DNA from: Glaucostegus cemiculus | Taxonomy: Eukaryota | Length of the DNA stretch: 64,000 bases | Direction: 5' to 3' | Assembly (NCBI GenBank): GCA_976551045.1 | Contig: CDPCPM010000102.1 | Span: forward strand, 806,001 to 870,000 | Shown: in pieces, positions 40 through 59,290 of the stretch | Layout: every line of letters starts with the position of its first letter | Numbering within the stretch: the stretch's first letter is position 1 | The notes under the pieces: generated by a model | The model's database searches: none | Told to the model about the DNA's origin: nothing | The model's input: the letters and a program-made list of their open reading frames with translations, nothing else | Program-made: the position numbers and the translations under genes

Positions 40-405
40 CCTGGATTCAAGTTCAATAACTTACAGTAACTCGCCTTCTTGTTTTGAATCGGAACTGGCC
101 AGTTCTGTTGTAGGTCATCCATGTGTAATTTTAACTTGGTTTCTCTTGACTGACACTGACCCATTGGGCCTTTGCACATGCCACCATAAACTGCTTATCG
201 CTCGGGTCTTACCTTTTTGGAAATATTGTCTCCTCTATTCCCTCTGCTGGAATCCCATTACAAACTCAGGAATTTAAATCTAGTGTTTTGTCCCCTCTTT
301 CCCAGTTCTGAAAGTCTTTGAGCTGAAACACTAACTCTATTCTTCTTTCCACTGATGCTGCCTGACCTGAATATTTCAAGCACTTTCCTGTTTTTTATTG
401 CATTG
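40..405 (+). mobile_element. Penelope-like element 3' tail (pseudo-LTR) remnant
   Basis: Ends in CCCAGTTCTGA...GAAACACTAAC...GATGCTGCCTGACCTGA...TTTTTATT, the same tail that follows the GIY-YIG fragment at 8275-9107. Confidence 0.6.
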
Positions 406-3859: not shown

Positions 3860-4440
3860 TTCTATTTCACATTCAGTGAAATTCCACCACCAGCAATCTT
3901 CCCTTTCCTCCCATTTCAGCATTCTAAAGGAATCACTTTCTTTACAACTTGGTGGTCTGTTCTTCCATCTCCCCTAACTGGTCACTGTTTTGGCACTTTC
4001 TCTTCCAACTGCAGCTGGTGCAACGTCCAGTTTTGCCTTCACTCCTCACCATTTATAGACAAATAGACTTTGGTATTTGCTGCTCTTCCAATGCAGTGTG
4101 CTTTATTCTATGCTCCTACTGAGGTCCCCTCCACACTGGGGGAAACCAAATGCAGATTGGGTGACAGCTGTTTTGTTCTGCAGGGGTGGCACTAAAATTC
4201 CAGTTCACTGTCACCTTTAGTTCTCCATCTTATTCCCACTCTGACCTACCTCCTGCACTGTTCTAATGAGGCACCTTGTCTGCTGTTGTGACTTGACTCT
4301 ATATTGAATTCAACTAATTGTGGTAACACTTTAACACTATAACTGTCTAGTTCTGATACAAAGTAAATATTACAGATTAAGACTAAATTTTTCTCTCAGA
4401 CATTTAGCTGGTCTGCTGGGCCTTTCCAATATTTGCTTTT
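3860..4440 (+). mobile_element. Decayed Penelope-like element, GIY-YIG region plus tail
   Basis: CTCCACACTGGGGGAAACCAAATGCAGATTGGGTGACAG aligns by eye with CTCTACATCGGTGAGACCAGATGCAGATTGGGTGACTG at 8430-8467. Confidence 0.65.
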
Positions 4441-5104
4441 GGCATCTCTTCTAGTAGTTTACATTTCAGAGCTTTTTTCATGCCCCTTCTTTTTGTAGGA
4501 GCTCTTGTGTCTATGTGAGTCCTGCTTACCAGTACAGTACTCTTGCTTTTGCCTTTCCTGATGAGATGAAATCAGTAAATTGCTCTTTCAGATTATACAT
4601 AATTAAAATTCTTGAATGATCACAGTGGGATTTGGAGTTTGCTTTTCTCTAGATTTGCAATTATGTCCAAACTCTGATATACTATTCCAGTAACAGAATA
4701 CATGGATGTGATAATGCAGTTAACCATTTTTCTTTTCATTAAGCTATATTGGACTGTTCCTCTTTCGTATCATTGAACTTGCCCACTTGTTGTCCAAATC
4801 CAGTAGACTGATTTACTTCTCATCACTAGACCTGTGTTTATGACTAATTGTATCTTGCTTTCCTTCATTCTTTTAATGGGTATGTAAATCTCACTTCTGT
4901 TCTGCAAAAACAGCATCTTTCCAAGATCTAAACATCTCATGCCTCATTCAACATTTTTGGCTCCTATTTCAAACCATTGACCCTGCTATCTGATCTCAAA
5001 TGGAGTTCATATTTGCTAGATGAGATTTTAAAAATGCATTCCTGCACCATTTCTTCTGAAGGTGCTAATCCTCATGGAAGTAGTTCAAAGGTAAGTCGGT
5101 CATT

Positions 5105-5245
5105 GTTGGAAATCTGAAAATATGAAATGTTGGGAATACCCAGTAAGGTGGGAGTAACATTTGTGGAGAGAAGAATAAAATTACTGTTTTTGGACTAAGG
5201 AGTTCTGACAAAAACCTTTTTTAGATTAGTAATTGTTTATCTCAT
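5105..5245. mobile_element. Very decayed Penelope-type tail fragments (antisense then sense)
   Basis: GAAATGTTGGGAATACCCAGTAAG...CATTTGTGGAGAGA resembles the antisense tail; GTTCTGACAAAAACC resembles the sense core. Confidence 0.35.
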
Positions 5246-6974
5246 ACTGAGATACAGTGGGAAAACTGCCAGACTGGGTTATGAGTAAACATATAAAACC
5301 TTTTTCCCTCTAATCTACAGATTTTTTGATCCTAGTTGGCACTGTTAGAAGTGATCACAACATAGTTCTTGTGGAGGCCAAGTCTGGCTTTCACAGTAAG
5401 GACACCCTTAATATGTGCCACATTACACTTGTGCTAAATAGAACAGATTCAGAAAAGATTTGGTTTCTGTGAAACACTGGACTCCAAGCAGCAGCAGAAA
5501 TGTACACTACCACAATCCATAACCTCATGGCCTGGCATATTCCTCACTTAGTATTAATTTCAAGCAGAGGATCAATGCTGGTTCAAGCAGGTGTGCAAGA
5601 GGTACATCTAAAATTAGGTGCTACTTTAATGAAGCTGCTACACAGAACAACATTCATACTAAACAGCATGTGATAGACTGAGCTAAGCAATCTTGCAGTC
5701 AGTGGGTCTGATCACAGGTCTACAGTGCTACTACGTCTGATGCTGAGTGGTGGACAATAAAATAGGTAATGGGAGGAGGAACCTCTGTGAATATCCCCAA
5801 GCTCAACTATACTAGGGGCCTCTCCTCATCTCACTGCAAAAGGTTAAGGCTAAAGCAATTACAATCATGTTCAGCTGTGGTGCTGAATTGATCCAGCCCA
5901 GCTTCTTCCTCAGATCCCCAACATGGAAACAAGTCTCCAGCCAACTGGATTCGGTCCTAGTGATGTTAAGGAACAGCTGATGACAACGGCCTACATGGGA
6001 GGGTGTGGAACCAGACAGCATCCCAGCTGTGGCATTGAAGACCTGTATGTCAGTAGTAGCTATGCCTGTAGCCAAGCAGTTCCAGTGCAGATGCAACACT
6101 GGCATCTATCTGTTGATGTGGAAATTTTTTTGGCCAGGTCACAAAGTAGGACTAATCCACTTCAGCTAATTACTGTCCAATTTGTCTACTCTCAATCACC
6201 AGAAGTGATGGAATTCATTTAACAGTACTATTAAGCAGCACACATTTACTAATAACTTTCTGGGTTTTGACAAGATGGCTCCCCACACCAGATTTCATCA
6301 GTATTGGTCTAAACATGGGCCAAAAACCTGAATTCCAGAATTATTGCGCTTGATATCAAGACAGCATTGAGTGTGGCTTCAGGGTGCCCTGGTAAGTTGA
6401 AGTTAATGGATATCCAAGAGAAAATGCTGCAGTGGTTGGAGTTGCACCTTGTAAAAAGGAGGATTGTGATGGTTGTTGGAAGTCGATCACCACGGACCCA
6501 GAACATCACTGTGGGGATTCCTTGGGGCAGTCTCCTAAACTCAATTCAACTGCTTTATTAATCCTCCCTATCTCTTGAGGCCTGAACTGGGGATTTTCCT
6601 TGATTGCCCAATGTTTAATTACATTCACAACTCCTCGGCAATTGAAACTGTCCACACCTGTGTGCAGCAAGAATTAGACAAATGGCAAACAACACCTGTA
6701 TCATAATTGTCAGGCACCATCTCCAAAAGTGCATAAACATTTACCTGTTGACATTCAGTGACATTACTATTGCCGAGTCTGTCCTGCATCATGGGAATTG
6801 CCATTGACCAGAAACTCAGTGGACCAGTCACCAATACCATGACTACAGAGCAGGTTGGAGGCTGGGTGTCTTGCAATAAGATGTGCATCTCCTGACATTC
6901 CAAACTTTTTCCACTGTATCTACAAGGTGTAAAACAGGCATCTGATGGAATATTTCCTACTTGTCTGGACAAGT

Positions 6975-8219
6975 TTCAATACCATCATCCCGCAACAGCT
7001 AATCAAGAAGTTGAGCGCTCTGGGCATTAACTCTCCTCTCTGCAACTGGATACTGGATTTTCTAACTTGCAGGCCGCAGTCAGTCAAAATTGGTAAAAAC
7101 ACCTCAAGCACCATCACACTGAGCACTGGCTCCCCACAGGGTTGTGTGCTCAGTCTGCTCCTGTTCACCTTGTTGACATACGAATGTGAGGCCAGATCCA
7201 GCTCCAACCGCATTGTTAAATTTGCCGATGACACGACAGTGGTGGGTCTTGTCACGAATGACGATGAGTCAGACTACAGAGAGGAGGTGAAACAACTAGC
7301 GGTGTGGTGCCATGACAACAACCTCTCCTTGAATGTGGATAAAACCAAGGAGATGATAGTGGATTTTAGGAGGGGCCACTGTGTGCACGCCCCACTGACC
7401 ATCAACTGGTCTGCTGTGGAACAAGTACGCAGCACCAAGTTCCTGGGGGTGCACATCACCGACGACCTGACCTGGTCCACTAACATTACGGCCCTTACGA
7501 AGAAAGCTCAAATGCCTCTACTTCCTGCGGAGACTGAGGAAAGCGTACCCCCATCCCTCCGTCATGAAAACCTTCTATAGGGGGACCATTGAGAGCATCC
7601 TAACTCAATGTATCACTGTTTGGTTTGGGAGCTGCTCAGCTGCTGGGCGGAAGTCCCTCTAGAAGATAGTTAGGGCTGCGGAGTGGATCATAGGTGTCTC
7701 GCTTCCATCCCTCGCAGATGTATACAAAGACCGTTGTGTGAGGAAGACCAAAAGCATAATGGCCGACCCTTCTCACCCCTCCCACCACCTCTTCACAATT
7801 TTGCCATCAGGGAGGAGGCTTAAATATATCAGGGCAAGAACGACCAGGCTGAACAATAGCTGCTTTCCGCAAGCCATCAGAACTGCAAACTCTCATCCCT
7901 CCATCTTCCTTTGTTAACACTAAGAGATGCTAGGTGCACAGAAACGCACCAGCACTTTAAATGCCTGACACCAGCCCGTTCGCTGTAATAACTATTTATT
8001 TATTTACTGGCCATTTTTAATTTAATCTGCGTACTAATTTAATTTTAACTTCTGTAGCTTTTAATGTCTAATGTTTTGTAATGTTTATTCTGTCAAGTGT
8101 GTATGTGTGTCTCTATTGGTTGTTATGTTATTTTATGGGACGAGCACCTGAGGAGGACGGTATCTCGCTCCTATGCATACTATGTATGTATATGATTGTG
8201 ACAATAAAAACTGATTCTG
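6975..8219 (+). mobile_element. Rex1/Babar LINE, young family, 5'-truncated
   Basis: RT motifs [45 protein letters not shown]; 2-bp frameshift after KKAQ relative to the second copy; AATAAA then GATTCTGA tail; AAGT duplicated on both sides. Confidence 0.93.
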
Positions 8220-8274
8220 AAGTGTAGTGTCAACAATCCCCAAGAAGCTCTGCACCACCCAGGACGAAGCAATG

Positions 8275-9107
8275 ACCCTCCCAGCACTTATCCCTGCAAC
8301 TGTGTAAAGTGCTATACCTCCTTCCTCACCACCATTCAGGATCTCAGATAATCCTTCCAGGTGAGGCAGCACTTCAAATGTGAATCCAAGAGTGTCATTT
8401 ATTGCATCTGGTGCTCCCTGTGTGCCCTCCTCTACATCGGTGAGACCAGATGCAGATTGGGTGACTGTTTCATTGAGCACCTTTGCTCTGTCTGCTGCAA
8501 AAGCAAGGATCTCCCAGTGGCCACCCACTTCAATTCCACATCACACTCCCACACTGACGTGTCTATCCATGGCCTCCACTACTGCCATGTTGAGGCCAGA
8601 TACAGGTTGGAGGAGTAAAACCTCATGTTCTGCCTTGGTAGTCTCTCTAACTTCTGGTAACCCCACCTCTCAGCACACCCACCCCCCTCCCCCCTTTGTT
8701 TTCCCTCATTCCTATGAGCCCCTCACCCCTTCTCTTTCCCTCCTATTCCATGGTCCACTGTACTCTCCTACTGGATTCATCCTCCTCCTTCAGCCCTTTG
8801 CCTCTTCTATGTATCACCTCTCAGCTTTTTGCATCACTCCCTTTCATTCCCCCTCCACCATTCATTTGCCCTCCTCCCCTCCCCACCTCACTCAGACTCT
8901 CCCATCACCTGCCAGCTTGTGCTCCTCCCCCTCCCATGACCACCTTATTCTGGCTTCTGCCCTCTTCCGTTCCACTCCTGATGAAGGGTCTCGACCTAAA
9001 ATGTCAGCTGTTTATTTCCTTCCATTGATGCTACCTGACCTGCTGTAAGTTCCTCCAGCATTTTGTGTGTTGCTCCAGATTCCAGCATTTGCAGAATTTC
9101 TTGTCTC
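8275..9107 (+). mobile_element. Penelope-like element 3' part: GIY-YIG endonuclease plus tail
   Basis: ORF 8361-8618 VIYCIWCSLCALLYIGETRCRLGDCFIEH...VATHFN is a PLE GIY-YIG domain; followed by C/T-rich UTR and hammerhead-like motif. Confidence 0.9.
8970..9030 (+). ncRNA. Degenerate minimal hammerhead ribozyme motif in Penelope tail
   Basis: CTGATGA (8978-8984), A, stem GGGT-CTCG-ACCT, then AAAA where GAAA is expected (CpG-decay-like change); probably inactive in this copy. Confidence 0.55.
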
Positions 9108-9689
9108 AGTTCAAGGTGGCAGCTTGCCCTCATCTTGAGGGCCAATTAGGAATGGGTGATAAATGCAGGCCTTGCCAGCAGGGCCCAGGTTCTGAAAAAT
9201 TAACAAAACATTCTTTGAGCAAAGAGCAAGAATAATATAAACAAAAATGGAATCAAACAATTTCCAGGCCTTGGATATCCAATAGCAGAAAGGTACAGCT
9301 CACACCAAGCGCCCAATTAAACCCATTGTGGCATCTGCACGAAACATTACATCGGTTGGTATTTAAAGCTAGACCTTTATGTATCATCTGCAGCTTTTGG
9401 TTGTGGACAGTTCTAGGCTGAAAGCCTAGCAAGTTTAAGTCAGCAAGAGCTGGTCTCCCAGCAACTGTTGATTTGATATTAGACTCCATAGAGAATTATC
9501 CAAAATTAGCTTTTTCTGTTTGTATCTGAATTGGCTGCCTATCATTTTGTTTGGCTTCGCTTTTATTTTTGTATTGTCTGGTCTGCTGGACATGTACTGC
9601 AGTCTTGCCATTGACAAAGAAGTGTAATGTGAACTTGACTGCCATGTTAAGTCATCCAATCTTGCCCTTAGGTATTCCCTTTGTTCAAT

Positions 9690-9875
9690 ACCTTCCCCTC
9701 TCCCACTTTCACTGCTACCTAAAACTAATGTTTTCTTTTCCCCAGTTCTGATCAGGTGTTCTGGACTGGAAATGTTAACTGTTTCTCTCTTCACAGATGC
9801 TGCCTGACCTGCTGAGTGTGTCTAGCATTTTTTTGTTTCTGATTTCAAATTCCCAGTCTCTGCAGACTTTTTTGT
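9690..9875 (+). mobile_element. Penelope-type tail remnant
   Basis: CCCAGTTCTGATCAGG...GAAATGTTAAC...CAGATGCTGCCTGACCTGCTGAG. Confidence 0.7.
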
Positions 9876-19621: not shown

Positions 19622-19752
19622 AAATCCAGATGTAGGGTCTCTATACAAATATTGCCCATCCCTTTGCCTCTACAGATGCTGCTTGACCAAGTGAATTCTT
19701 CCAGCAGTTTCTTTTGCTCTAGGTTCCTGCATCTGTTGTCCCTTGTCTCCGT
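19622..19752 (+). mobile_element. Penelope-type tail remnant
   Basis: CCAGATGTAGGGTCTC...CAGATGCTGCTTGACC...TTCTTCCAGCAG. Confidence 0.6.
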
Positions 19753-21020: not shown

Positions 21021-21949
21021 CCTGGATGAGGAAGTGGAGGGGTGGGTTAGTAAGTTTGCTGATGACACAAAGGTTGGGGGAGTTGTGGATAGTTTGGAGG
21101 GCTGTCAGAGGCTACAGAGGGACATAGATAGGATGCAGAGTTGGGCTGAGAAATGGCAGATGCAGTTCAACCCAGATAAATGTGAGGTGGTTCATTTTGG
21201 TAGGTCGAACAGGTTGGCGGAATATAGAATTAATGGTAAAGACTCTTGGCAGTGTGGAGGATCAAAGGGATCTTGGGGTCCGAGTCCATAGGACGCTCAG
21301 GGCGGCTGCGCAGGTTGACTCTGGTTAGGAAGGCGTATGGTGTATTGTCCTTCATCGGTCGAGGGATTGAATTTAGGAGTAGGGAGGTAATGCTTCAGTT
21401 GTATAGGTCCCTGGTCAGACCCCACCTGGAGTATTGTGTTCAGTTCTGGTCGCCTCACTACAGGAAGGATGTGGAAGCTATGGAGAGGGTACAGAGGAGG
21501 TTTACGAGGATGCTGCCTGGAATGGGGAGCATGCCTTATGAGAGCAGGCTGCAGGAGCTTGGCCTTTTCTCCTTGGAGAGGAGGAGGATGAGGGGGGACC
21601 TGATTGAGGTGTATAAGATGATGAGAGGTATGGATAGGGTAGATAGAGGCTTTTCCCCAGGGCTGAAATGGTGGCCACAAGAGGACATGGGTTTAAGGTT
21701 CTGGGGGGAAGATATAGGGGAGATGTTAGGGGTAAGTTTTTTACTGAGAGTGGTGAGTGTGTGGAATGGGCTGCCGGAGATGGTGGTGGAGGCTTTCAAG
21801 ACGTTAGGGTCTTTCAAGAGACTGTTGGATAGGTACATGGAGGTAAATAAGATAGAAGGCTGTGGGTAAGCCTAATAGTGTGGGGACATATTCGGCACAG
21901 CTTTGTGGGCTGAAGGGCCTGAATTGTGTGGTAGGTATCTATGTTCTAT
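21021..21949 (+). mobile_element. CR1 LINE, young, 5'-truncated
   Basis: SKFADDTKVGG, WQMQFNPDKC, LYRSLVRPHLEYCVQFWSPHYRKD, LERRRMRGDLIEVYK; tail TCTATGTTCTAT. Confidence 0.95.
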
Positions 21950-22164: not shown

Positions 22165-22375
22165 TGTCTTATCTATCACCTTCACCTACTCTGCAACTTT
22201 AAAATTAATGTCTTTTCCTTCCACCCCCCCACCCGCCACTCCCCAATACCAGTTCTAATGAAAGGTCTTCAACCTGAAATATTAACTCTGCACTTCCATT
22301 CCCACAGGTGCTGCCTGACCTGCCGAACAGTTCCAGCATTTCCTTTTTAATATATATTTTGGATTTGCAATATTT
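22165..22375 (+). mobile_element. Penelope-type tail remnant
   Basis: AGTTCTAATGAAAGGTCTTCAACCTGAAATATTAAC...GCTGCCTGACCTG. Confidence 0.7.
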
Positions 22376-22446: not shown

Positions 22447-23797
22447 TTATTGGTATTGGTTCAGTATTGTCACTTGTACAGTGGAAAAACTTGTCTTGCG
22501 TACTGATTGTACAGGTGCATCGTACATGGTGCAGTTACATTAGGTTATTACAGAGTGCATTGATGTAGCACAGGTAGTACAGAGTAAAGTGTTGGTGCTG
22601 TTCACTCCCAGGAACTTGAAGCTCTCAACCCTCTTAACCTTGGCACCATCGATGTAGACAGGTACATGTACACTGCCCTCTTTCCTGAAGCCAATGAGCA
22701 GCTCTTTTGGTGACATTGCGGGAAAGGTTGTTGTCAAGACACCATTCTATTAAGCTCTCTATTTCCTTCCTGTACTCTGACTCATTGCTGTTTGAGATGC
22801 AGCCTACAATGGTGGTATCATCTGCAAACTTGTAGATGGAGTTAGAGCAGAATCTGGCTACACAGTCATGAGTGTATAGGGAGTAGAGTAGAGGGCTGAG
22901 GATGCAGCCTTGTGGAGAACCAGTGAGAATAATTGTGCCAGAGGTATTGCTGCCTATCCTCATTGTGGTCTGTTGGTTAGAAAGTCAAGGATCCAGTTAC
23001 AGAGGGTGGTGTTGAGTTCGAGGTCTCGGTGTTTGATGACAAGTTTGCTTGCGATTAATGTTTTGAAGGCAAAGCTGTAGTCAATAAACAATAGTCGAAT
23101 GTAGCTGTCTTTACTGTCCCGATGCTCCAGAGCAGAGTGTAGGGCCAGGGAAATGGTGTTTTCTGCAGACCTGTTTTGCTGATAGGCGAATTGGAATGGG
23201 TCCAGGTTGTCTGGAGGTTGGAGTTGATGCATGCTATGACTGACCTCTCAAAGCACTTCATGATGGATGTCAGAGCCACAGGTCCATAGTCATTGAGGCA
23301 CGTTACCTCGCTTTTCTTTGTTACTGGAATGATGGTGGTCTTAAAGCAGGTGGGAGCCTGAGATTGAAGCAGGGAGAGGTTAAGTGTGTCTGAAAATACT
23401 TCTGTCAGCTGATCAGCACAAGGTCTGAGCACACCGCCAGGGACACCACCTGGGCCAGGTGCTTTCCTCATGCTCACTCTCCGAAAGACTGATCTTGCAT
23501 TATCACTGGTGACCGTGGGTTCGGTTGCATTGGAGGCTGTCTGGGTGGACAGTGACAAACCACTTCTCTTCTGTTCAAAACGTGCATAGAATATGTTAAG
23601 CTCATCAGGAAGGGATGTGCTGTTGTTAACTATGCAGCCCGTCTTCGTCTTGAATCCTGTTATGGCGCATAAGCCCTGCCGTAAGTGATGGCTGGTCTGA
23701 GACTCTATTTTGAGTTGGTATTGCTTCTTGGTATCCCTGATAGCTTTGTGAAGGTCATACCTCAATTTCTTGCACAGATCAGGATCACCAGATTTGT
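22447..23797 (-). mobile_element. Rex1/Babar LINE RT fragment with internal deletion
   Basis: ORFs 23055-23765, 22960-23232 and 22634-22963: PVALTSIMKCFE, LDPFQFAYQ, LFIDYSFAF, GSPQGCILSPLLYSLYT, KFADDTT; ACCAAT tail near 22450. Confidence 0.92.
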
Positions 23798-25183
23798 ATC
23801 AGTTAAAGAATTTACTACCATTTTAAATAATTGCATCAAATAGTTATTATCACTGATTTTTTTTCCCCATTTAGGTTTTATAACCATTGGTGCTAATGAG
23901 CTCTTGCAGTTTCTGAGCCATTAGGGAGCTGTCAGCTGTTCATGGTCAAGTTTTTTTTCTCAAAGTGTAAATATTGGAATAAAATGTGGCAAGTGGCTTT
24001 GCTTTTTAGTTAATTCACTTCTTTTTCTCTCCAAAACCAATAGGAAACCTTTCACTTAGTAGTTTGTGAATATTTTAACTGAGGGCAAGTGGGTGAACGT
24101 CTTTCACTGGGTTTTCCAAAACAGCATGATGATGTGCTATTATTCGTGGGTTTGATGTATTCCTTTACCCACTTCCTTTGCAAGCTAATTTCTACTAATT
24201 TGCTGTCTTGCTGCTCTCCCACTTTTTCAAAGTTGTATTTCTCATCCTGAAAACCTGTCTTCCATACTGACCTCTATTTTATCATTGAAGCTAAAATACC
24301 ATGAACATTGCTCCCATACAAGATCGTGCCATTCTTCACCTGGATGGTGAACTCTCATGCTTTTTATCATAATTGCTGCTGTTTTATTCTTCTGATTTAT
24401 TGCAGTTTGTGGATACTTCCAATATACCTTAAACTTTGCTATGCAAGTCCCACCCACCTTGTCATTGTCTGTTGTCACTGCAGTGTCAACAACTTGGTAG
24501 AAGTTGGATCTCCTAGTAGGGAAAGTTGTGTACTTTCTTAAATCCACCTCAATTAGTGGCATTAAATAATGAAAACTTACTGGTGTATAAATTGTTGGTT
24601 ATAGTTTCAAGAGCTTAGAACAGAATTGATATCTGAGATGCACATTAAACCGTAATTTCATTTTATTTCATCTGCTTATTTTTGGCATCAATAATTTGAA
24701 GAACAAAGGCCCTTTCAATGGGTTGTGGCAAGATTTTGGAATTTCCATGTGATTCTTTTGTCTCTGCAGACTCGTGAGGAATTCTTGGACTTCACTGTTT
24801 ATATTTGGTGCTATCTTCATGAGAGAGTTTCTGCCAAATTCAAATAATTTGCTAACTGAATTTTCCTTTGCATAAGTTTATATACACATAGTCAATTTAC
24901 TTTGCTGCATTATTGTGGATAAAATATTGCAAAACATTAATTGGACACCAATACAGTAGAAATTGAAACTGAATCATGTAGCTACTATATTATTTCAGTG
25001 TACTTAATGGATAAGGATGAAGACCTTTTTAAAGCTAATTACCATTGAAGAATTTGAACATGTTTAGCCGTGATACTCCAGCTACTAAACTTGAACAAAA
25101 CTTTAGTCACAGTTTAACAAGTGTAGTGATTGTCAGATCAAAACAATGAATAATTTGAAAGTAATGGTTGAAATTTCATTTGA

Positions 25184-25525
25184 GACACAAAAGACTACAG
25201 GTGCTGAAATTTGACAAAGCTGATGGAGGTACTCAGCAGGTCACAAAGCATCTGTGGAGGGAAATGGACGGTCAACATTTTGGGTTGAGACCTTTCATCT
25301 GTACTGAGTCTAAGGAAGGTGCCCAGTATAAAGAGGGGAGTGGTGGGATAAGAGCTGGCAAGTGATAGGTGGATCCAGATGAGGAAGGGTTGATTGACAT
25401 ATGGAGTCAGGTAGGGGAGGGAAGGGTGGAGGTGGCAACAGAGGCTAGGAGGCGATTGGTAGAGATAACTGGCTACAGATTATGGAATTTGATAAGAAAG
25501 GAAGATGGAGAGTGGGACCAAATAA
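25184..25525 (-). mobile_element. Penelope-type tail
   Basis: Antisense CAGATGAAAGGTCTCAACCCAAAATGTTGAC...CAGATGCT...GACCTGCTGAGTACC. Confidence 0.75.
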
Positions 25526-29227: not shown

Positions 29228-29895
29228 GCATTCTGGTCACCCCATTATAGGAAGGATGAGGAGGCTGTGGAGAAGTGTAAAGGGGAAAGTACACAGTTAA
29301 TGGCAGGACCCTTAACAGCATTGATGTATAGAGGAATCTTGGGATCAAAGTCTGTAGTTCCCCAAAAGTGGTAAGGTAGTAAAAGCACTGTATGGCATGC
29401 TTGCCTTTATTAGTCATTCATTGAGTTCAAGAGTCAGGAAGTTATGTTGCAGCTTTATAAAACTTTTAGTTAGACCACATCTGGAGTATTGCATTCAATT
29501 CTGGTCACCCCATTACAGGAAGGATGTGGAGGCTTTGGAGATGGTGCAGAAGAGGTTTACCAGGATGCTGCCTGTATTAGAGGGCATGTGCCATAAGAAG
29601 AGGTTGAACAAACAAGGGTTGTTTTCTCTGGAGTGGGTAGAGGCTGAGGGGAGACATGATGGAAGTAAAATTTTACACAAGGTGATGGGTGCCTGCAGTG
29701 CACTGCTAGGGATGGTGGTGGTGGCAGATATGGCATTTAAGGGGCTCTTGGATAGGCACATGAATATGCAGAGAATTGGGGGGGGGGGGTGTTATAGACC
29801 AATAGAGGCAGAAGGGATTAGGTGTCATTGCTTAATTAGTGTGACACATGATGGGCCGAAGGGTCTGTTCTTGCCTTGTGCTATTCAATGTTTGA
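29228..29895 (+). mobile_element. CR1 LINE 3' fragments
   Basis: LVRPHLEYCIQFWSPHYRKDVEALEMVQKRFTRMLP; the FWSPHYRKD segment also occurs at 29230-29270; tail GGGCCGAAGGGTCTGTT. Confidence 0.85.
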
Positions 29896-31467
29896 ATACA
29901 AGGAGTTTCTATGCTTTTGGTTTAAAGCAAAACCTTTCAAGTCATATCTAAAAATTGCCATTTCTCAGTTTCTAATAAAGATATAGTTTACTAGCTGGAG
30001 TATGCAAACTTAATTACACTTTCTTTAAAGAATATTTGCCAAGAAATATTGATTTGATGTCTGCATTTTAACTACACATACTCAATTTACTGATGGCTTT
30101 GTGCTGTATGATTAGTTGACAGTTGTATCATCTATAGCTGTAAAAACAGAGGCCAATTTTTTTGACTGTATTTTGTAAAACTGTTCCCCTTTGGCATGAT
30201 CTTGTGGCACCAATCATACAACAAATGTTATTTTATCGTTAATAGTCACTTTGAACAAGCTTTAAGGCAATTTTGTATCAAAACTTCCAATAACTGAAGG
30301 TGGTTGGAGATAAACCATATGTAGAGCAACTAAAGTGAACTGAAGGGGGCTTTTCAATAGCAGTACCATCTAAGAATAACTGACACTGTTTGTATTATTC
30401 AATATTATTGCACTTTTTTAATTTGTGAAGGAGCCTTGGCTGCAGACACTGTGTCTACAGGTTCCTTAATGCTTTGTGAGAGTACTCATTAACCAGTGTG
30501 AACTTGCAATGAAATAAAAACTCATGCTGGAAATGAGTTGGGCAGCATATGTGGAAAGATACTTGTCAAATGCCACCAGTACATCCATTTTAATGTACAA
30601 CGTACTTTTAGAATGCTTAAAAGCAAGAGTAGGCCATTTGGGATCTCTCGCTTCCCCCATCCCCAGCCCCCCCCCCCCCCCCCACCCAACATGCTCATTG
30701 ACCACACTCTTCCTTGACCTAGACCACTATATTGAATAAATCTGTGCATAGGTTTACTTGTACTTTAGATGGGTCAGTACATCAAGATGCCTTGGCAAGT
30801 GGAAATGGATTGCTGGCTCACTGCAACAGATCCTAATTATGGCCATGATATTAAAAGCCATAAAAGTTTATAGATAACTATGTATATCCTAGCAAATGGG
30901 GAAATACAACAAATATTCTTCATTTGCTCTCTGTGATCAAGTCATGAGGATGTTTAGTGTTGGCAAATTGCTCTTTGCAGAGCTCTTGATATTTTGTATT
31001 ATTTCTTATAGATTTATCATTTTGGTTGTTAAGTGTAAAAAAAAATCAACAGAAAAAGTTAATTCTGGGCTGTTCAAATGGCAGTAAATGCACTTCTAGT
31101 TTATCTCGTCAGTGTAAACTGTAGTCAGTAAAACACTTTTGTTGATGCTTCAGAGACTCGCCACCACATGACATTAACAAATGGTTGCTTGCTTTATTAG
31201 CACATGTTTGGAACAATACATTGTCTTTGGAAACATTGTATTCTTTAAAAGACAATAGTCTGGAATGTTTGACCTGTTGATCACATTGCTGATCTGTTGC
31301 TTACTCAGCAGAAGCAAATACATTGTGTGCAACTCTGTAAACTTTGGTTTATGCCCTACTATTTTTGAGTTCTGTCCTCCCTCTACTGTGCAAATATCCT
31401 GAAAGGATATTAATGAGCCAGTAATCCTACAACTAAAATCAACAAAGGGTGCATAAGGGGATTACCA

Positions 31468-39075: not shown

Positions 39076-39079
39076 CTAC

Positions 39080-41170
39080 AAACACTCAGCAGGTCAGGCA
39101 GCATCTGTGGAAAGAATCAGAATCCGTTTTATTGTCACAACCATATACATACATAATATGCATAGGAGCGAGATACCGTCCTCCTCAGGTGCTCGTCCCA
39201 TTAAATAACAACCAACAGAGACACGCAGACACACTTAACAGAATAAACATTAAAAAACATTAAACATTAAAAACTATGGAAGTTAAAATTAAATTAATAC
39301 GCAGATTAAATTAAAAATGGCCAGTAAATAAATAGTTATTAAAGTGAATGGGCTGGTAGCGGGCATTTAAAGTGCTGGTGCATTTCTGTGCACTTAGCAT
39401 CTCTTAGTGTTAACAAAGGAAGATGGAGGGATGAGAGAGTTTGCAGTTCTGATGGCTTGCAGGAAGAAGCTATTGTTCAGCCTGGTCATTCTTGCCCTGA
39501 TACATTTAAGCCTCCTCCCCGATGGCAAAATTGTAAAGAGGTGATGGGAGGGGTGAGAAGGGTCGGCCATTATGCTTTTGGTCTTCCTCACACAACGGTC
39601 TTTGTATATGTCTGCGAGGGATGGAAGCGAGACACCTATGATCCTCTCCGCAGCCCTAACTATCTTCTGGAGGGACTTCCGCCCAGCAACTGAGCAGCTT
39701 CCAAACCAAACAGTGATACATTGAGTTAGGATGCTCTCAATGGTCCCCCTATAGAAGGTTTTCATAACGGAGGGATGGGAGTTCACTTTCCTCAGTCTCC
39801 GCAGGAAGTAGAGGCGTTTCTGAGCTTTCTTCGTGAGGGCCGTAATGTTAGTGGACCAGGTCAGGTCGTCGGTGATGTGCACCCCCAGGAACTTGGTGCT
39901 GCGTACTTGTTCCACAGCAGACCTGTTGATGGTCAGCGGGGCGTGCACACGGTGACCCCTCCTAAAATCCACTATCATCTCCTTGGTTTTATCCACATTC
40001 AAGGAGATGTTGTTGTCATAGCACCACACGGCTAGTTGTTTCACCTCCTCTCTGTAGTCCGACTCATCGTCATCCATGACAAGACCCACCACTGTCGTGT
40101 CATCGGCAAATTTAACAATGCGGTTGGAGCTGGATCTGGCCTCACAGTTGTGAGTCAACAAGGTGAACAGGAGCGGACTGAGCACACAACCCTGTGGGGA
40201 GCCAGTGCTCAGTGTGATGGTGCTTGAGGTGTTTTCACCAATTCTGACTGACTGCGGCCTGCAAGTGAGAAAGAGAGACAGCCACTTTTTTTTGTCTGCA
40301 ACCTTCAGTCAGAACTGGGAAAGAGAAATGTAAGTGGGTTTTCAGAAAGAGGGATGTGCAGAATACAGTGATTGGATGAGTTGAAATTGGTTAACTTAAA
40401 CAATTATTAGCACATTAAACTATTAGGCAGGTGTAGTGAGTTGCTAATGATAAAGTGGTGGGATTTGCCCAACAGGCTGGATTTGTTTGCAGGATAAGAC
40501 AAAATAGCAAAACTAAACTGATCAGACAGCATTGGGGGGGTGGGAGGAGAAAGAAGCAGCTGATGATTAGGATGAGGGTCCTTTCATCAGACCCAACAAA
40601 AAAGAAATTGGTCTGGGTAGCAAATAAATGTGGGTGAAACAAATGTATTATCTCAGAGTGAATGTGTGTGGTAGATGGGTTAAGATACAATGTTTGTGTA
40701 ATTTGTGGCTGATGTGGTTCTGGCATACTGGACTTTTTCAGCAGGTCAGCCTTTTCATGGGGTGTGTGGAAGAAAATAAGTGGAAATAGTTCTTGTGGGC
40801 AAGAAAAAGCATGTTATCTAAAGTTCAAGAAATTGATATTGAATCTGGAAGGTGCAATGAGCCCAGATGGAAGATGAGGTGTTTCTTGCGGTTGTGTCGG
40901 TTATCCTAAAGGTACAGGAGGCCATGGACGGGTGGAGTGGGATGGTGAATTAAAATGGCAGGCAGCTGGAAGTTTGGTCACTCCTGCAGACTGAGTACAG
41001 GTGCTCCACTAAGCGATCACCCAATATGTTTATTTTCTCCAATGTAGAGGAGGCCACATTGAAAACTGAATGTAGTGTTACTAGGTTAGAAGTGCAGGTG
41101 AATTGCATCTTCACCTGGAAAGGATGATTGGGGCCCTGGTTTGTGGAAGGGGAAGAGGTAAAAGGACATT
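39080..41170 (-). mobile_element. Penelope-like element (GIY-YIG remnant plus two tandem tails), interrupted by Rex1
   Basis: Antisense LYIGE..LGDRL remnant near 41010-41055; tails at 40490-40620 and at 40275-40330 continuing into 39080-39115. Confidence 0.65.
39113..40272 (-). mobile_element. Rex1/Babar LINE, young family, 5'-truncated, open reading frame
   Basis: Uninterrupted ORF 39394-40185 ([38 protein letters not shown]); near-identical to 6975-8219; GATTCT tail; GAAAGA duplicated on both sides. Confidence 0.95.
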
Positions 41171-41229: not shown

Positions 41230-41415
41230 CTATCACAGACATTCCCTTTTGTCTGACACATCCCTTCTCCCATCACCGAAAACATTTACTTGCATCTCTT
41301 CCTGACAAAGGGCCAGAGACCAAAAAAATAACTGTTGCTCTTTCCACAAGTTGCTTGTCTTGGAGTTCTTGCAACACTTTTATTTTAGATTTAGAGTATC
41401 TGCAGTTCTTTTGAT
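41230..41415 (+). mobile_element. Penelope-type tail, inverted relative to the adjacent element
   Basis: CCTGACAAAGGGCCAGAGACCAAAAAAATAACTG...TATCTGCAGTTCTT. Confidence 0.55.
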
Positions 41416-48450: not shown

Positions 48451-49899
48451 TCTTTCTTTAGCAGAAATATCTGGTGGAAGGAATTAGTATTTAGGGTGTG
48501 GAGGTGAAGCCAATCACAGGCTGCTTTGTCCTGTACTTTGAACAAAAGACAATGTAACATTCTGGCTAGATTGTAAGGAAAAGACTGAGTTATGGAAACA
48601 TTTTTCCTCCAAGACTTCAAGGATTGTTCATCTTTGCAAAGCAAGCTATTTTAATCCTTGGCAAGTTGTGTATGTATTTACCCCATGTTGCCAGGGGAAG
48701 GAGTTACAATGTTTTATTGTGGAAATACAGTGTAAGCCAAGTCACCATCTAGGAGATCTGTATTTATGGACCTTGCCCAAGCCACATGCATGTGGCTGTA
48801 TTTGCATACTTTCATGCTTAGGTTGCCAAAGCTGCCCACAATTTCCCACGCTTAGATTGCCAAGCTGTCCTTGAGATTCCTGTGACTCCTGAATGTTTTC
48901 AGACTCCTGACTCACTGCAGCAGCATGAAGGGGTTCTGCTCCAACACACCATCACTTTTCAATCAATATTCACTGACCGCAGATTTTCTATTTCTTGTAG
49001 GCCTTTGATTATGTGAACAGCATGTTTTTTTGTAGAAGTAATAGAGGGAATTTTAGGTTCTTCAGAATATACACCTTCATTGCATTTTGTCTATAGCTGC
49101 AATAAATACTTGCATTTTGTATCATGAATTTTGACTAGCACTACTGCTTCCTTCTAGTTGACTTCCTAGTTTCATTCAAGTTTGCACCTGTTGGAGTATG
49201 GTCTCTGAAGAAAACTGGAGGTTTTAAACACGCTTCCCTAAAATCTGATTAAAAGGGGAGAATGGCTTCCTGAAAATTTGAAATGAAACACTCCTAAGGC
49301 TGTCAGTGGGCAAAGCTTCAGCATTTTCTCATTGAGTCACTCTTGAGCTATAGAATATCATTGCTTTTATGGAGAACTTTCATCAGAAGGGGCCGATAAG
49401 ACTGGATTAAGAATGGTCTAGAAGTTCTTTGGAGCAGTTTGCTGCATGTCTACCTGCTAAACCTACTCCTAATGTGAACAGTTTCTCCAGCTGCACCTTC
49501 CACAAGGAAGCTGGTGTTGACCTGATGGTCAAAGCCACATAGAGTGGCAAATCTTTTGATCACAGTTCCCACAAAAATGCCTTGGCTGCCAGCTGCTACA
49601 TCTTCAGGCTGAAGCACAGTAAAGCAGCTTGAGTTTTTGCATGCACTTAATATTTGCAAACTTTTCAGTTTCAAGACCTTTCAGCAGAACTGGGTAGGAG
49701 AAGAAACCAATTAGTATAGATAGCAGAAAGGGTGGGGGATGGGTGGAACAAAGAATTTAGCTGACAGGTAGTTAAAATCAGATTACGCTTCTGTGTGTGT
49801 GTAAAATGTTCCCTTCTCAAAGGATAGAAGATGAGATCCCAAATTCTTGCCATTTGACAACATGTTATACACATGGAAGCTTGATGTGATTTTTTTAAA

Positions 49900-52967: not shown

Positions 52968-53087
52968 GAAACAAAGGATGCAGATGCTAGAATCTAGGTG
53001 AAAAACACAATGCTGGAGGAACTCAGCAGGCCAGGCAGCATCCATGGAGAAAAGCAGGCAGTCAACATTTCTGTCAGGATCCTTCAT
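52968..53087 (-). mobile_element. Penelope-type tail cut at the hammerhead core
   Basis: Antisense ATGAAGGATCCTGACAGAAATGTTGAC...GATGCTGCCTGGCCTGCTGAGTTCCTCCAGCA. Confidence 0.8.
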
Positions 53088-53770
53088 AGAACATGGAACA
53101 TTACAGCACAGTACAGGCCCTTCGGCCCACAATGTTATGCTGACATTTTATCCTGCTCCAAGATCTATCTTACCCTTCCCTCCCACATAGCCCCACATTT
53201 CTGTATCATTCATGTGTCTTTCTCTTAAATGTCCCCATAACCTCTGCTGGCAGTGCAGTCCACGCACCCACCAACTGCTTAAACAAAAACAAACAAACTT
53301 ACCTCTGACATCGGCCTTGTATCTTCCTCCAGTCATCTTAAAATTATGCCCCTTGTTTTAGCCATTGTCACCCTGGGAAAATTTCTGACTGCCCACTTGA
53401 TCTATGCCTGTTATCACCATTTACACCTCTATCACGTCACCTCATCCTCCTCTCCAAAGGGAAAAGCCCAAGCTCACTCATCTTATCCTCATAAAACATG
53501 GTCTCCAATCCAGGCAGCATCCTGGTAAATCTTCTCTGCACCCTCTCTAAAGCTTCCACATCCTTCCTATAATGAGGTGATCAAAGCTGAACACAATACT
53601 CTAAGTGTGGTCTAACCAGATTTCTGTAGAGCTGCAACACTACATCACATCTCTTGAACTCAATACCCTGACTTGTGAAGGCCAATATGCCACCTTAACA
53701 ACCTGCGCAGCAACCTTGAGGCATCTATGGACATGGACCCCAAGATCCCTCTGTTCCTCCATACTGCTAG
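53088..53770 (-). mobile_element. CR1 3' fragment
   Basis: Antisense tail AGAACATGGAACATTACAGCACAGTACAGGCCCTTCGGCCC; HYRKDVEALERVQRRFTRMLPG on the minus strand. Confidence 0.9.
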
Positions 53771-57243: not shown

Positions 57244-59111
57244 TTTTAGAGGATGGAATCATCTTCATGCCACTAATCTTGGCCATAATGTTCCTGATCT
57301 GCAGAATTGCTCTTCTGCTTTGCAGCCTCCCTTCCTGCTTTCAAAATTCTAATCTTAAATTACTTCAGTTACTCCCTTCTGTCCTATAATCCACTCCAAT
57401 TGCAATTCTATAACTCTTTTTCTGTACTCATTTTAAACTGATCCATGATGTTTTTGTGGCAAGGGAAAACACCCACCAACATGGAAAAGAATTCTATTTT
57501 CCTTCTGTCCCACTTGCTTAATATTCTGGCCCCTTTTCTTGCTACATTTCCCAAGTAGCTGCCATGAAAATCGATTTGTGCATGTGAATCATCTTTGATC
57601 AGCATGAAAGCAAGTTTATTAGTTTTTAAAAAGCAGCTGTTTATCCTAATCTGGTAATGAACTTGTGCACTGATGGTAAAACTTATTTCAAAATAAAAAT
57701 CGGTAAATACTGGAAACTCATTTGGCCTAAGCAACATCTGTGAAGAGAGAATTGACAATTTGTCAGAATTGTTTGCTTCCATGGCTTGGGAGCAAAATTT
57801 AATGGACAGTATATTGTACCTCACATCAGTGTTAAATTGGGTAACATCCTTGACAACCTCTGGTACAATTTAGCATTTCTTTTCCCTGTACTGCCCCCAC
57901 AGATTCCATGGATCCACTTCGGGGAAGGAGACTTGTCTAATCCTGTACTGTATTGGCCTTTATCCCATTTTCCACCTACATCATTGAACATCTCTAACAG
58001 ATAACCCTGAGGTTCTGATCCAATGAAAACATCTTTCATTTCTCTAAGCCATCTTCAAAACTCTAGCCATTGTCATAAGTGAAAACAGAGGGTGCTCTAA
58101 ATCCAGGAGAATAATTGGTTGGGCTACATTTTAAAAAAAAATAGTCTTACTGTTTTGGGTGAGCTATAAAATAGATAGATCCATCCATCCACAGGCAGCT
58201 TGTTTCTAAAGGAATTGGGTTGATGGATTTTAAAACTTAACTAAACATTGTATGCCATGTAGTAGATTGGGAACAATGTAGAGCATACCATAGGAAATGC
58301 GAAGCAATACTATTAAACAAGCAGGAAGCAAAGAAATATTGAGAGGCAGGGACAAGAAGAATTTGCATCTTTCAGCAAATACAGATGATATTTGAATATC
58401 ATTGTACAATTGTCTTGGACTGTATTGTGATCCTTTTGAACAGCCAGTCCAGATGAAATGCCACACTTCATCTGGAGCGTGACTCCAGCCATGTAGGGCA
58501 GGCTAATTCACTTGCATGTACCAGGCTGTGAAAAGATGATTCAGTAATTCCCAACAATTGGAGTGAGGGACGTCTGCTAATGTAGGCTTATTGCCCAGGA
58601 TATTTGTAATCTTTGTGGATAATTCTGTTCTTTTTCTTGCAGAAGTTTGTCCTTTTCCAGATTGTTTTTTTACTTTTTCCCATACTTCTACAGAATAAAC
58701 AGAAGTCTGTCATTGTCTATCTTTAAACCTCTGATCTTTCATGAATCTTAAGTACTTGGAGGTTTCTGGACTGGGTTTTGAAATCATTGTTAGGAATTGC
58801 TTTTTGTAATCTAGTGACATCTTTGCTGTCATTTCTGTTCACCATTTTAACACATTCTATTTGAGCTGCAGCAACAGGTATGTGACTTGTCAGTCAACCA
58901 GAGGGATTGGGGTCTTTGGAAATATTGATTTGCCTTTTCATATCCCTTTTTGGAATTTTTTTGTTTATCCTGTGACCTACTTGTGTGTGAGGCATATCAA
59001 AGATGTGGAGCCGCCATGGTTGGTATGAAACCCTGGATGACATTTGATCAATGCAAAAAGAAAAAGTAATTTTGTTTGAAATGTATTGTTTTGGCACCCT
59101 ATCTTTAATGG

Positions 59112-59290
59112 AGGCACAAGAGACTGCAGATGCTGGAACTAATAACAAAAACACTGCTGGAGGTACTCAACATTTTGGTCTTGATATGCAACATGACAAT
59201 TTCAACACCACCACCCACCCCCAAACAGAAGCTGCTCACTGCTTGAATCACTGAATTCTTCCAGCAGTTTTTGGTCCCTATTTTTAAAGT
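59112..59290. mobile_element. Short element made of two oppositely oriented Penelope-type tails
   Basis: CACAAGAGACTGCAGATGCTGGA...CTGCTGGAGG (antisense tail) followed by GAATTCTTCCAGCAG (sense tail). Confidence 0.55.

Follow-up and report, generated by a model that had tools for sequence, protein, structure and literature searches.

A decayed minimal hammerhead ribozyme in the 3' pseudo-LTR of a truncated Penelope-like element of Glaucostegus cemiculus, and its genomic relatives

Introduction

The stretch of Glaucostegus cemiculus DNA analyzed here (the window, 64,000 nt or 64 kb) contains a sequence that resembles a hammerhead ribozyme. Is this motif part of a mobile element, does it belong to a known class of hammerheads, and could it or its relatives still cleave RNA? 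A first-pass annotation of the window had placed the motif in the tail of a Penelope-like element (PLE). We located the motif within its element, compared it with copies across the genome, and weighed several explanations for its present form.

Results

Position of the motif and its host element

The hammerhead letters quoted in the first-pass annotation are present at 8978-9008 (+): CTGATGA at 8978-8984, an extra A at 8985, stem II at 8986-8997, and AAAA at 8998-9001. The complete 38-nt motif spans 8973-9010 (+) and was matched with an E value of 1.7e-27 when the window was searched with profiles built from intact genomic copies. Controls were clean. The same profiles gave best E values of 0.86 and 0.38 on the reversed window, and none of 10 shuffled windows had a match at E<0.01. 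A plain search of the window for CTGATGA-N-GAAA returned 0 matches versus 1.7 expected by chance and is thus uninformative.

Judging from its sequence, the surrounding element is a 5'-truncated PLE of about 840 nt belonging to family A (one of the families, A to E, defined below). Its parts follow one another at 8270-9107 (+) as endonuclease remnant, pyrimidine-rich pseudo-LTR (pLTR), hammerhead, and tail. The features are as follows.

8270-9107 (+): 5'-truncated Penelope-like element, family A (blastn and tblastn to genomic relatives; profile match)
8232-8660 (+): broken C-terminal endonuclease coding remnant, GIY-YIG-like (similarity to genomic relatives)
8973-8977 (+): stem I 5' arm, positions 2.5-2.1, with the lesion G2.3C (profile alignment to family A)
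8978-8985 (+): intact core box C3-A9, followed by the additional A that separates 9 from 10.1
8986-8997 (+): stem II, 4 bp with a 4-nt loop; C11.1U makes the closing pair G-U
8998-9005 (+): the lesion G12A, A13-A15.1, C15.2U, and G16.2-U16.1-C17; predicted cleavage site after 9005
9006-9010 (+): stem I 3' arm with G1.1A and A1.2G; 3/5 pairs left
9011-9107 (+): downstream pLTR end plus the optional ~35-nt tail (family A 3'-end positions)

The 5' edge of the element (8270) is uncertain by about 30 nt, and its 3' end lies at 9107. A profile match covers 8530-9117 (E 4e-141), and no target-site duplication of at least 6 nt was found around the element. A LINE fragment at 6933-8220 (+) ends just ahead of the Penelope remnant; it is related to another fragment at 39118-40290 (-), with RVT_1, a Pfam ALKBH8_N match, and a short tandem 3' end.

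The endonuclease remnant has two internal stops (within 8232-8636) and a short deletion, carries the family stop codon at 8658-8660, and is 50-70% identical to many genomic relatives. It has no Pfam match itself, and its GIY-YIG identity is taken from those relatives. They show weak Pfam GIY-YIG matches (E 0.014 and 0.043, below the cut-off) and GIY-YIG clusters at 0.97 in a protein atlas, where RVT_1 look-alikes also appear. The annotation had set the hammerhead downstream of a GIY-YIG ORF. It was right about the position, as the hammerhead starts about 320 nt behind the remnant, but not about the ORF, which is a two-stop remnant.

The same arrangement recurs in the genome. At all 20 loci chosen for a good endonuclease match, a hammerhead of the same orientation is located a few hundred nt downstream, and reverse transcriptase (RT) is also found upstream in 12/20, giving the order RT-EN-hammerhead (one is the window's own locus). 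A C-x4-C-x2-C motif precedes the endonuclease in the relatives; linkers of this type have been described for the Neptune and Nematis clades (PMC8557442). Measured from C3, family A 3' ends are bimodal, with 30/130 at +88 to +103 and 86/130 at +124 to +133. The two groups are about 35 nt apart, which matches the optional 30-40 bp tail typical of PLEs (PMC8557442, Fig. 2 legend). Inverted 5' pieces are common in the genomic loci, as in EN+ PLEs with an inverted 5'-truncated pLTR. It is these endonuclease relatives, the downstream hammerhead, the bimodal tail, and the inverted 5' pieces that identify the window element as a truncated PLE.

Families and their fit to the published minimal type I hammerhead

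When the 285 of 356 copies that scored above 35 bits and covered most of the motif were clustered, families A to E emerged, in agreement with the earlier suggestion that several PLE subfamilies are present. A separate genome search with the 161-nt tail of the window copy yielded 41 scored matches out of 3,432 candidates.

Family anatomy was read from 68 family A copies that had not been selected by motif pattern. Their majority sequence is CAGUC / CUGAUGA / extra A / 4-bp stem II / GAAA / GACUG, with G10.1-C11.1 closing stem II, followed by C15.2-G16.2, U16.1, and C17. Stem I of family A consists of 5 bp, CAGUC pairing with GACUG, and the cleavage triplet is GUC; family B has GUU with a stem I of 4-5 bp. 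The extra nucleotide between 9 and 10.1 is A in 61/68 family A copies. In the closing pair of stem II, 10.1 is G in 61/68 and 11.1 is C in 52/68, with 14 carrying a CpG-type T; the corresponding pair in family B is G-U in 11/28 copies and A-U in 11/28. At the palindrome positions 15.2 and 16.2, family A has C in 40/68 and G in 49/68, and almost all other copies show CpG transitions.

At the sequence level this consensus equals that of Cervera and De la Pena (PMC4209133), which comprises a CUGANGAH core, G10.1-C11.1, a loopless palindrome at 15.2-16.2, NUH, and a short helix I. The assignment to Penelope-type minimal type I hammerheads with an extra nucleotide after A9 is therefore upheld. GAAA, an NUH triplet, and stem I, whose absence had been named as evidence against a hammerhead, are all present in the family. 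Two details of the annotation need correction. The extra A had been regarded as a special tolerated variant, but it is already part of the published CUGANGAH. A GTTAAC/GTTGAC segment had been proposed as palindromic stem III, but stem III is the loopless ACGU (15.1-16.1). The proposed segment corresponds to G16.2-U16.1-H17 plus the first three bases of the stem I 3' arm and spans the cleavage site. It was therefore rejected as stem III. In family D it reads GUU-GAC, which is self-complementary only via G-U pairs.

A pattern for the intact core had 684 exact matches in the genome, and the reversed pattern had none. The family A copies L032, L034-L037, and L039-L042 share G at 2.2 and sequence beyond the tail; they are probably one insertion multiplied within a larger repeat, and they inflate the count of 684. 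Among pattern-selected copies, the full minimal-hammerhead descriptor was passed by 15/30 of family A and 12/30 of family B. Rfam misses PLE minimal hammerheads: its covariance models gave no hammerhead match up to E 10 in the 64-kb window, and none in four loci with pattern-selected copies, intact ones included.

The pair 2.1-1.1 is C-G in 46/59 family A copies and U-A in 18/22 family B copies, a double change that reads as one inherited compensatory event. In a formal covariation analysis of 17 sequences, the double-change cells were reached by 45/500 shuffles and the covariation score by 155/500, so that neither value stands above the shuffled background. In the predicted fold the monomer is rod-like: stems I and II form, and the core pairs with the cleavage region. 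This modeled shape would fit inactivity and proves nothing. The predicted ACGU self-duplex is weak, at -1.7 kcal/mol. We rejected the minimum-energy structure of a folded dimer as evidence for catalysis, since its stems are swapped and a double hammerhead is not representable by folding.

About 50 nt after C3, another pyrimidine tract is found in all families. Its terminal YAG is immediately followed by an ATG, which opens a frame through the tail; GG replaces AG in some copies. This second site could mark an ORF start or a hairpin arm.

Lesions of the window copy and decay of inserted copies

The window copy differs from the family A consensus by six lesions: G2.3C, C11.1U, G12A, C15.2U, G1.1A, and A1.2G. 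The core-adjacent pair of stem I (2.1-1.1) is lost and C15.2U disrupts the ACGU palindrome, so that the copy lacks an intact core, the stem III palindrome, and the 2.1-1.1 pair. G12 is the general base of the hammerhead (PMC6155905), and because it is mutated the window copy is predicted to be catalytically dead.

The 38-nt motif contains four CpG sites. We compared their decay with that of other sites in 42 family A copies, the remainder of the 68 once copies with a different tail or a truncated 5' half had been set aside; this set is enriched for well-preserved copies, many of them picked by endonuclease similarity. CpG cells differed in 83/336 cases (24.7%) versus 61/1218 (5.0%) at other ribozyme sites, and G12A was present in 18/42 copies. 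As CpG sites decay about five times faster than other sites, most lesions are accounted for. The non-CpG core differed in 24/420 cells (5.7%) versus 105/1921 (5.5%) in the tail (Fisher p 0.81). Since the non-CpG core changes at the rate of the tail, no purifying selection is visible on inserted copies, which evolve neutrally. U4C was observed in 8/42 copies, above the 5% background and with an ordinary family A tail, and these copies may be a further sub-lineage.

Copy number was estimated in 464 kb, comprising the window and 40 stretches of 10 kb at round coordinates, seven of them from the window's contig; the choice was blind to the motif but not random. This sample contained 86 tail matches and one copy passing the full descriptor, whereas the reversed control and the 10 shuffled ones had 0. 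Should the sample be representative, there are roughly 5e5 tail fragments genome-wide, about 1% of them intact.

Other copies in the window

Nine further sites had been named in the window. Six of them (308, 9748, 19627, 22255, 25302, and 53087) are clear, with E values of 2e-5 to 1e-20. Altogether eight of the nine stand, one only as a copy split by a LINE. The site at 41302 (+) had no match with any of three profiles, though it is alignable by eye. The copies are as follows.

293-387 (+): decayed family B copy with a deletion in the core box (E 5.9e-16)
9731-9831 (+): decayed family B copy with G8C (E 2.2e-18)
19625-19713 (+): decayed copy with several lesions in the core, scored highest by the family C profile (E 7.6e-12)
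22246-22348 (+): decayed family B copy with G5A (E 2.4e-20)
25178-25506 (-): decayed copy with U4A, a family E tail, and G12A (profile and alignment)
39076-40328 (-): family B copy split by a LINE insertion (joined halves E 1.4e-9)
40506-40599 (-): strongly decayed copy, GAAA lost (E 0.003-0.01, weak)
49660-49709 (-): 3'-truncated family B copy with A6C, absent from the first-pass annotation (E 2.5e-6)
52971-53100 (-): copy of family D type that lacks the 5' end of the core box (E 1.1e-15; clustering)

In the split copy, the 5' half lies at about 40270-40328 and the 3' half at 39076-39117 (-); the site at 40315 alone gave E 0.076. The inserted LINE is the fragment at 39118-40290 (-) mentioned above, and its RT ORF occupies 39394-40308. 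The weak copy at 40592 is supported by a second, more decayed endonuclease remnant at 40811-41162 (-), which precedes it by about 220 nt on the same strand. At least one core lesion is found at each of the 11 aligned sites in the window, as had been stated, and the full descriptor has 0 matches there.

Tail-only fragments without a ribozyme lie at 57699-57751 (-), 59225-59273 (+), and 59102-59172 (-), the last two forming an inverted pair. LINE-like coding remnants also occur at 21240-21869 (+), 29358-29951 (+), and 23055-23798. The first two have no Pfam match and look like CR1/L2-type remnants.

Proposed origin of the window copy

We consider it very probable that the window motif is a decayed minimal type I hammerhead of a PLE 3' pLTR, predicted to be dead, that arose by copying of uncut RNA and then decayed neutrally at CpG sites. 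The explanation starts from its position behind an endonuclease remnant, its fit to the consensus, and its six lesions. In the source element the ribozyme would be unable to close stem III alone, and would require a dimer, because ACGU has no loop. Through their ACGU segments, two ribozymes on the same tandem transcript would pair with each other, and their cleavage after GUC would be slow, with possible assistance from the protein of the element. In published work, monomers of minimal hammerheads have no activity and dimers only a weak one (PMC4209133), and the hammerhead of an Anolis element needs protein (PMC11167929). We take the tandem or dimer arrangement from the literature, as none of 20 extended loci contained a full-length element with both pLTRs; the longest homology shared among them was about 2 kb. 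For most new copies the template would have been uncut RNA, with reverse transcription beginning at the tail and frequently ending early. Once a copy is inserted, its four CpG sites would decay fastest and it would evolve neutrally.

Subfamilies with altered cores

Some subfamilies depart from the consensus in the core itself. Family B is marked by U2.1-A1.1, by GUU as its triplet, and by a stem II of greater length. The family B pattern had 485 matches, a few of which belong to family A. Family C has C in place of A9, with 344 exact pattern matches and 0 in the control, and its stem I is shortened to 3-4 bp. The stem II loop of family C is often UUCG instead of CUCG. A pattern with a non-U base at position 4 had 318 matches, and among the first 30 of these, 21 were U4A and 9 were U4C. 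The family A tail was present in 0/21 of the U4A copies versus 5/9 of the U4C copies, and the U4A copies with their own tail make up family E.

Endonuclease remnants were found upstream of family C copies at 3/26 and 2/22 loci in two C clusters, the latter two being doubtful, and at 2/21 U4A loci (loci of C and E with such remnants: L140, L144, L148; L233, L234). Tail divergence in a small unselected sample was 11% for C (n=12), 11% for E (n=4), 13% for A (n=12), and 17% for B (n=24). Because of these values, families C and E appear to be not older than A or B.

Neither C at 9 nor A at 4 occurs in any of the 56 motifs of Fig. S3 of PMC4209133, read by eye. No description of these families was found in the literature searched on hammerhead core variants, hammerhead mutational scans, and Penelope elements of sharks and other Chondrichthyes, which covered few subscription papers; Lunse et al. 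2017 may list such variants. C at 9 and U4A were both also found in reads from other organisms. One highly expressed locus of another organism, represented by about 3,000 reads in RNA run X23 aligned to L057:1496-1531, contains a short copy that has both C at 9 and G12A.

These subfamilies raise an alternative to which we assign a little less than an even chance, namely that the hammerhead was already dispensable in source elements. Families C and E would then have spread without a working ribozyme, the motif being kept as a structural or promoter-overlapping signal. The abundance of family C, the absence of the family A tail from the 21 U4A copies, the separate endonuclease remnants upstream of C and E, their apparent age, and the shortened stem I of family C all point this way. 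So do the absence of both changes from the 56 published motifs and the finding that ribozyme mutants of the Anolis element leave insertion in vitro unaffected (PMC11167929). However, both C and E keep the remainder of the core along with stem II and the palindromic ACGU. The C of family C could instead be an insertion between G8 and A9 that is perhaps tolerated. Some natural hammerhead core variants keep low but real activity (PMC3088659); C at 9 and U4A are unmentioned in the sections consulted. The age samples are also small (n=4 to 24).

The 5' boundary of short copies

Many short copies begin at -5 to -3 from C3, at the opening letters of stem I. A pattern that fixed nothing upstream of C3 was used to collect 24 short copies of family C, and among these, identity was 22, 18, and 21/24 at -1 to -3, 12/24 at -4, and 8/24 at -5. 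Each of four public runs showed a pile-up of loose ends at -5 to -3 and a G at the end of the loose consensus for -4; the most numerous class of loose ends begins at -5, where the full 5-bp helix has its base. The base before AGT was G in 20/34 non-C cases (p 5e-5) and in 13/24 cases without inverted 5' pieces (p 0.003), versus about 26% expected. Target-site duplications of 11-15 nt abut the start in 6/54 short copies (null at most 10 in 162 pairings). Where a clear target duplication abuts the stem I start, the 5' flank is target DNA, and splicing to a host exon was rejected as the origin of those copies.

Starts at the cleavage site were not enriched, with 6/185 non-selected copies beginning within 4 nt of it; the 30-bit threshold of this count disfavors copies that start late. 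RNA reads from three runs of one other organism, whose relation to this genome is not established, cover the tail on both strands and show no pile-up of molecule ends. No GT..AG joint was present among the joints listed for these runs.

It is possible, if somewhat doubtful, that the beginning of short copies at stem I reflects the start of a capped transcript at this point, at an initiator-like YYAGTYY. The ribozyme would then sit at the very 5' end of the RNA, and the stubs would be full-length copies of short uncut transcripts. The drop in identity between -3 and -5, the loose ends in all four public runs, and the target duplications abutting the start are consistent with this proposal. The G before AGT, at about twice its expected frequency, is too; an untemplated 5' G has been attributed to the cap (PMC3287187). 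The largest class at -5, however, fits equally well with a reverse transcriptase leaving its template after the helix, and in L079 the G sits inside the target duplication and is thus microhomology, not an untemplated base. Furthermore, the RNA reads list no pile-up of molecule starts, the start site of D. virilis Penelope lies about 120 nt upstream of the ribozyme (PMC4209133, PMC2377424), and pattern-selected family A copies are mostly long (26/30).

We regard it as quite improbable that the polypyrimidine tract and YAG running into stem I act as a 3' splice site, with spliced and unspliced RNAs differing in stem I. A pyrimidine tract that closes with CAG at -5 to -3 is present in every family, long family B copies carry CTAAC about 25 nt upstream, and D. 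virilis Penelope offers a precedent (PMC4209133, PMC2377424). Nevertheless, the joints listed include no GT..AG joint, the entire pLTR is pyrimidine-rich, and the 5' flank of duplication-flanked short copies is target DNA rather than a carried exon.

Finally, it is vanishingly improbable that the motif arose by chance or is a host-domesticated structure specific to the window locus, as hundreds of exact relatives genome-wide refute a chance origin and the window copy is more lesioned than its typical relatives.

Discussion

The kind of motif found here is already known, having been described in 2014 (PMC4209133), and the window copy is ordinary. Like other metazoan PLE minimal hammerheads, the family combines CUGANGAH and its extra nucleotide with G10.1-C11.1, a loopless palindrome, NUH, and a short helix I. 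It also shares with them the 3' pLTR location, mostly solo truncated copies, and many families per genome. The 56 motifs aligned in that study include no cartilaginous fish, however, and none from a family that has C at 9 or A at 4; the window copy, moreover, is broken. Our rough figure of 5e5 tail matches compares with 4,000-9,000 intact motifs in coelacanth and Xenopus (PMC4209133), but the counting methods differ.

The Poseidon element PAc of Anolis (Frangieh et al. 2024, PMC11167929) likewise has a pLTR hammerhead and two 3' ends that define an optional tail, and likewise has no reads whose start or end falls at the cleavage site. PAc cleaves with the help of protein, whereas the element described here is known from its sequence alone, and the latter has the Neptune/Nematis-type C-x4-C-x2-C before its endonuclease (PMC8557442). 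Non-LTR retrozymes (bioRxiv 10.64898/2026.07.22.740005) also carry type I hammerheads from PLE pLTRs and are reported in one chondrichthyan species. They form tandem arrays with a ribozyme in each unit, unlike the window copies, which are dispersed or in inverted pairs; no head-to-tail ribozyme array was found within the 64-kb window, and the main copy is attached to an endonuclease remnant. In the D. virilis Penelope hammerhead (PMC4209133, PMC2377424), a 3' splice-site-like sequence also abuts helix I, but helix III is longer and the intron is proven, while splicing was not seen here in the joints listed.

The window copy itself is fossil repeat DNA with no importance of its own. The function of PLE hammerheads has been called unclear (PMC8557442). 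In this genome, related subfamilies differ in having canonical or altered cores, each is represented by hundreds of intact copies, and the 5' boundary at stem I is sharp, which makes that function testable with short RNAs.

We think it rather unlikely that the subfamilies with C at 9 or U4A spread to thousands of copies with stubs that derive from uncut capped RNAs starting at stem I. If this were true, the genome would record either that cleavage is unneeded for mobility or that functional variants exist in which the "extra" nucleotide lies between G8 and A9. In both cases, the A/B/C/E series would be a natural test set for the role of the hammerhead in PLEs.
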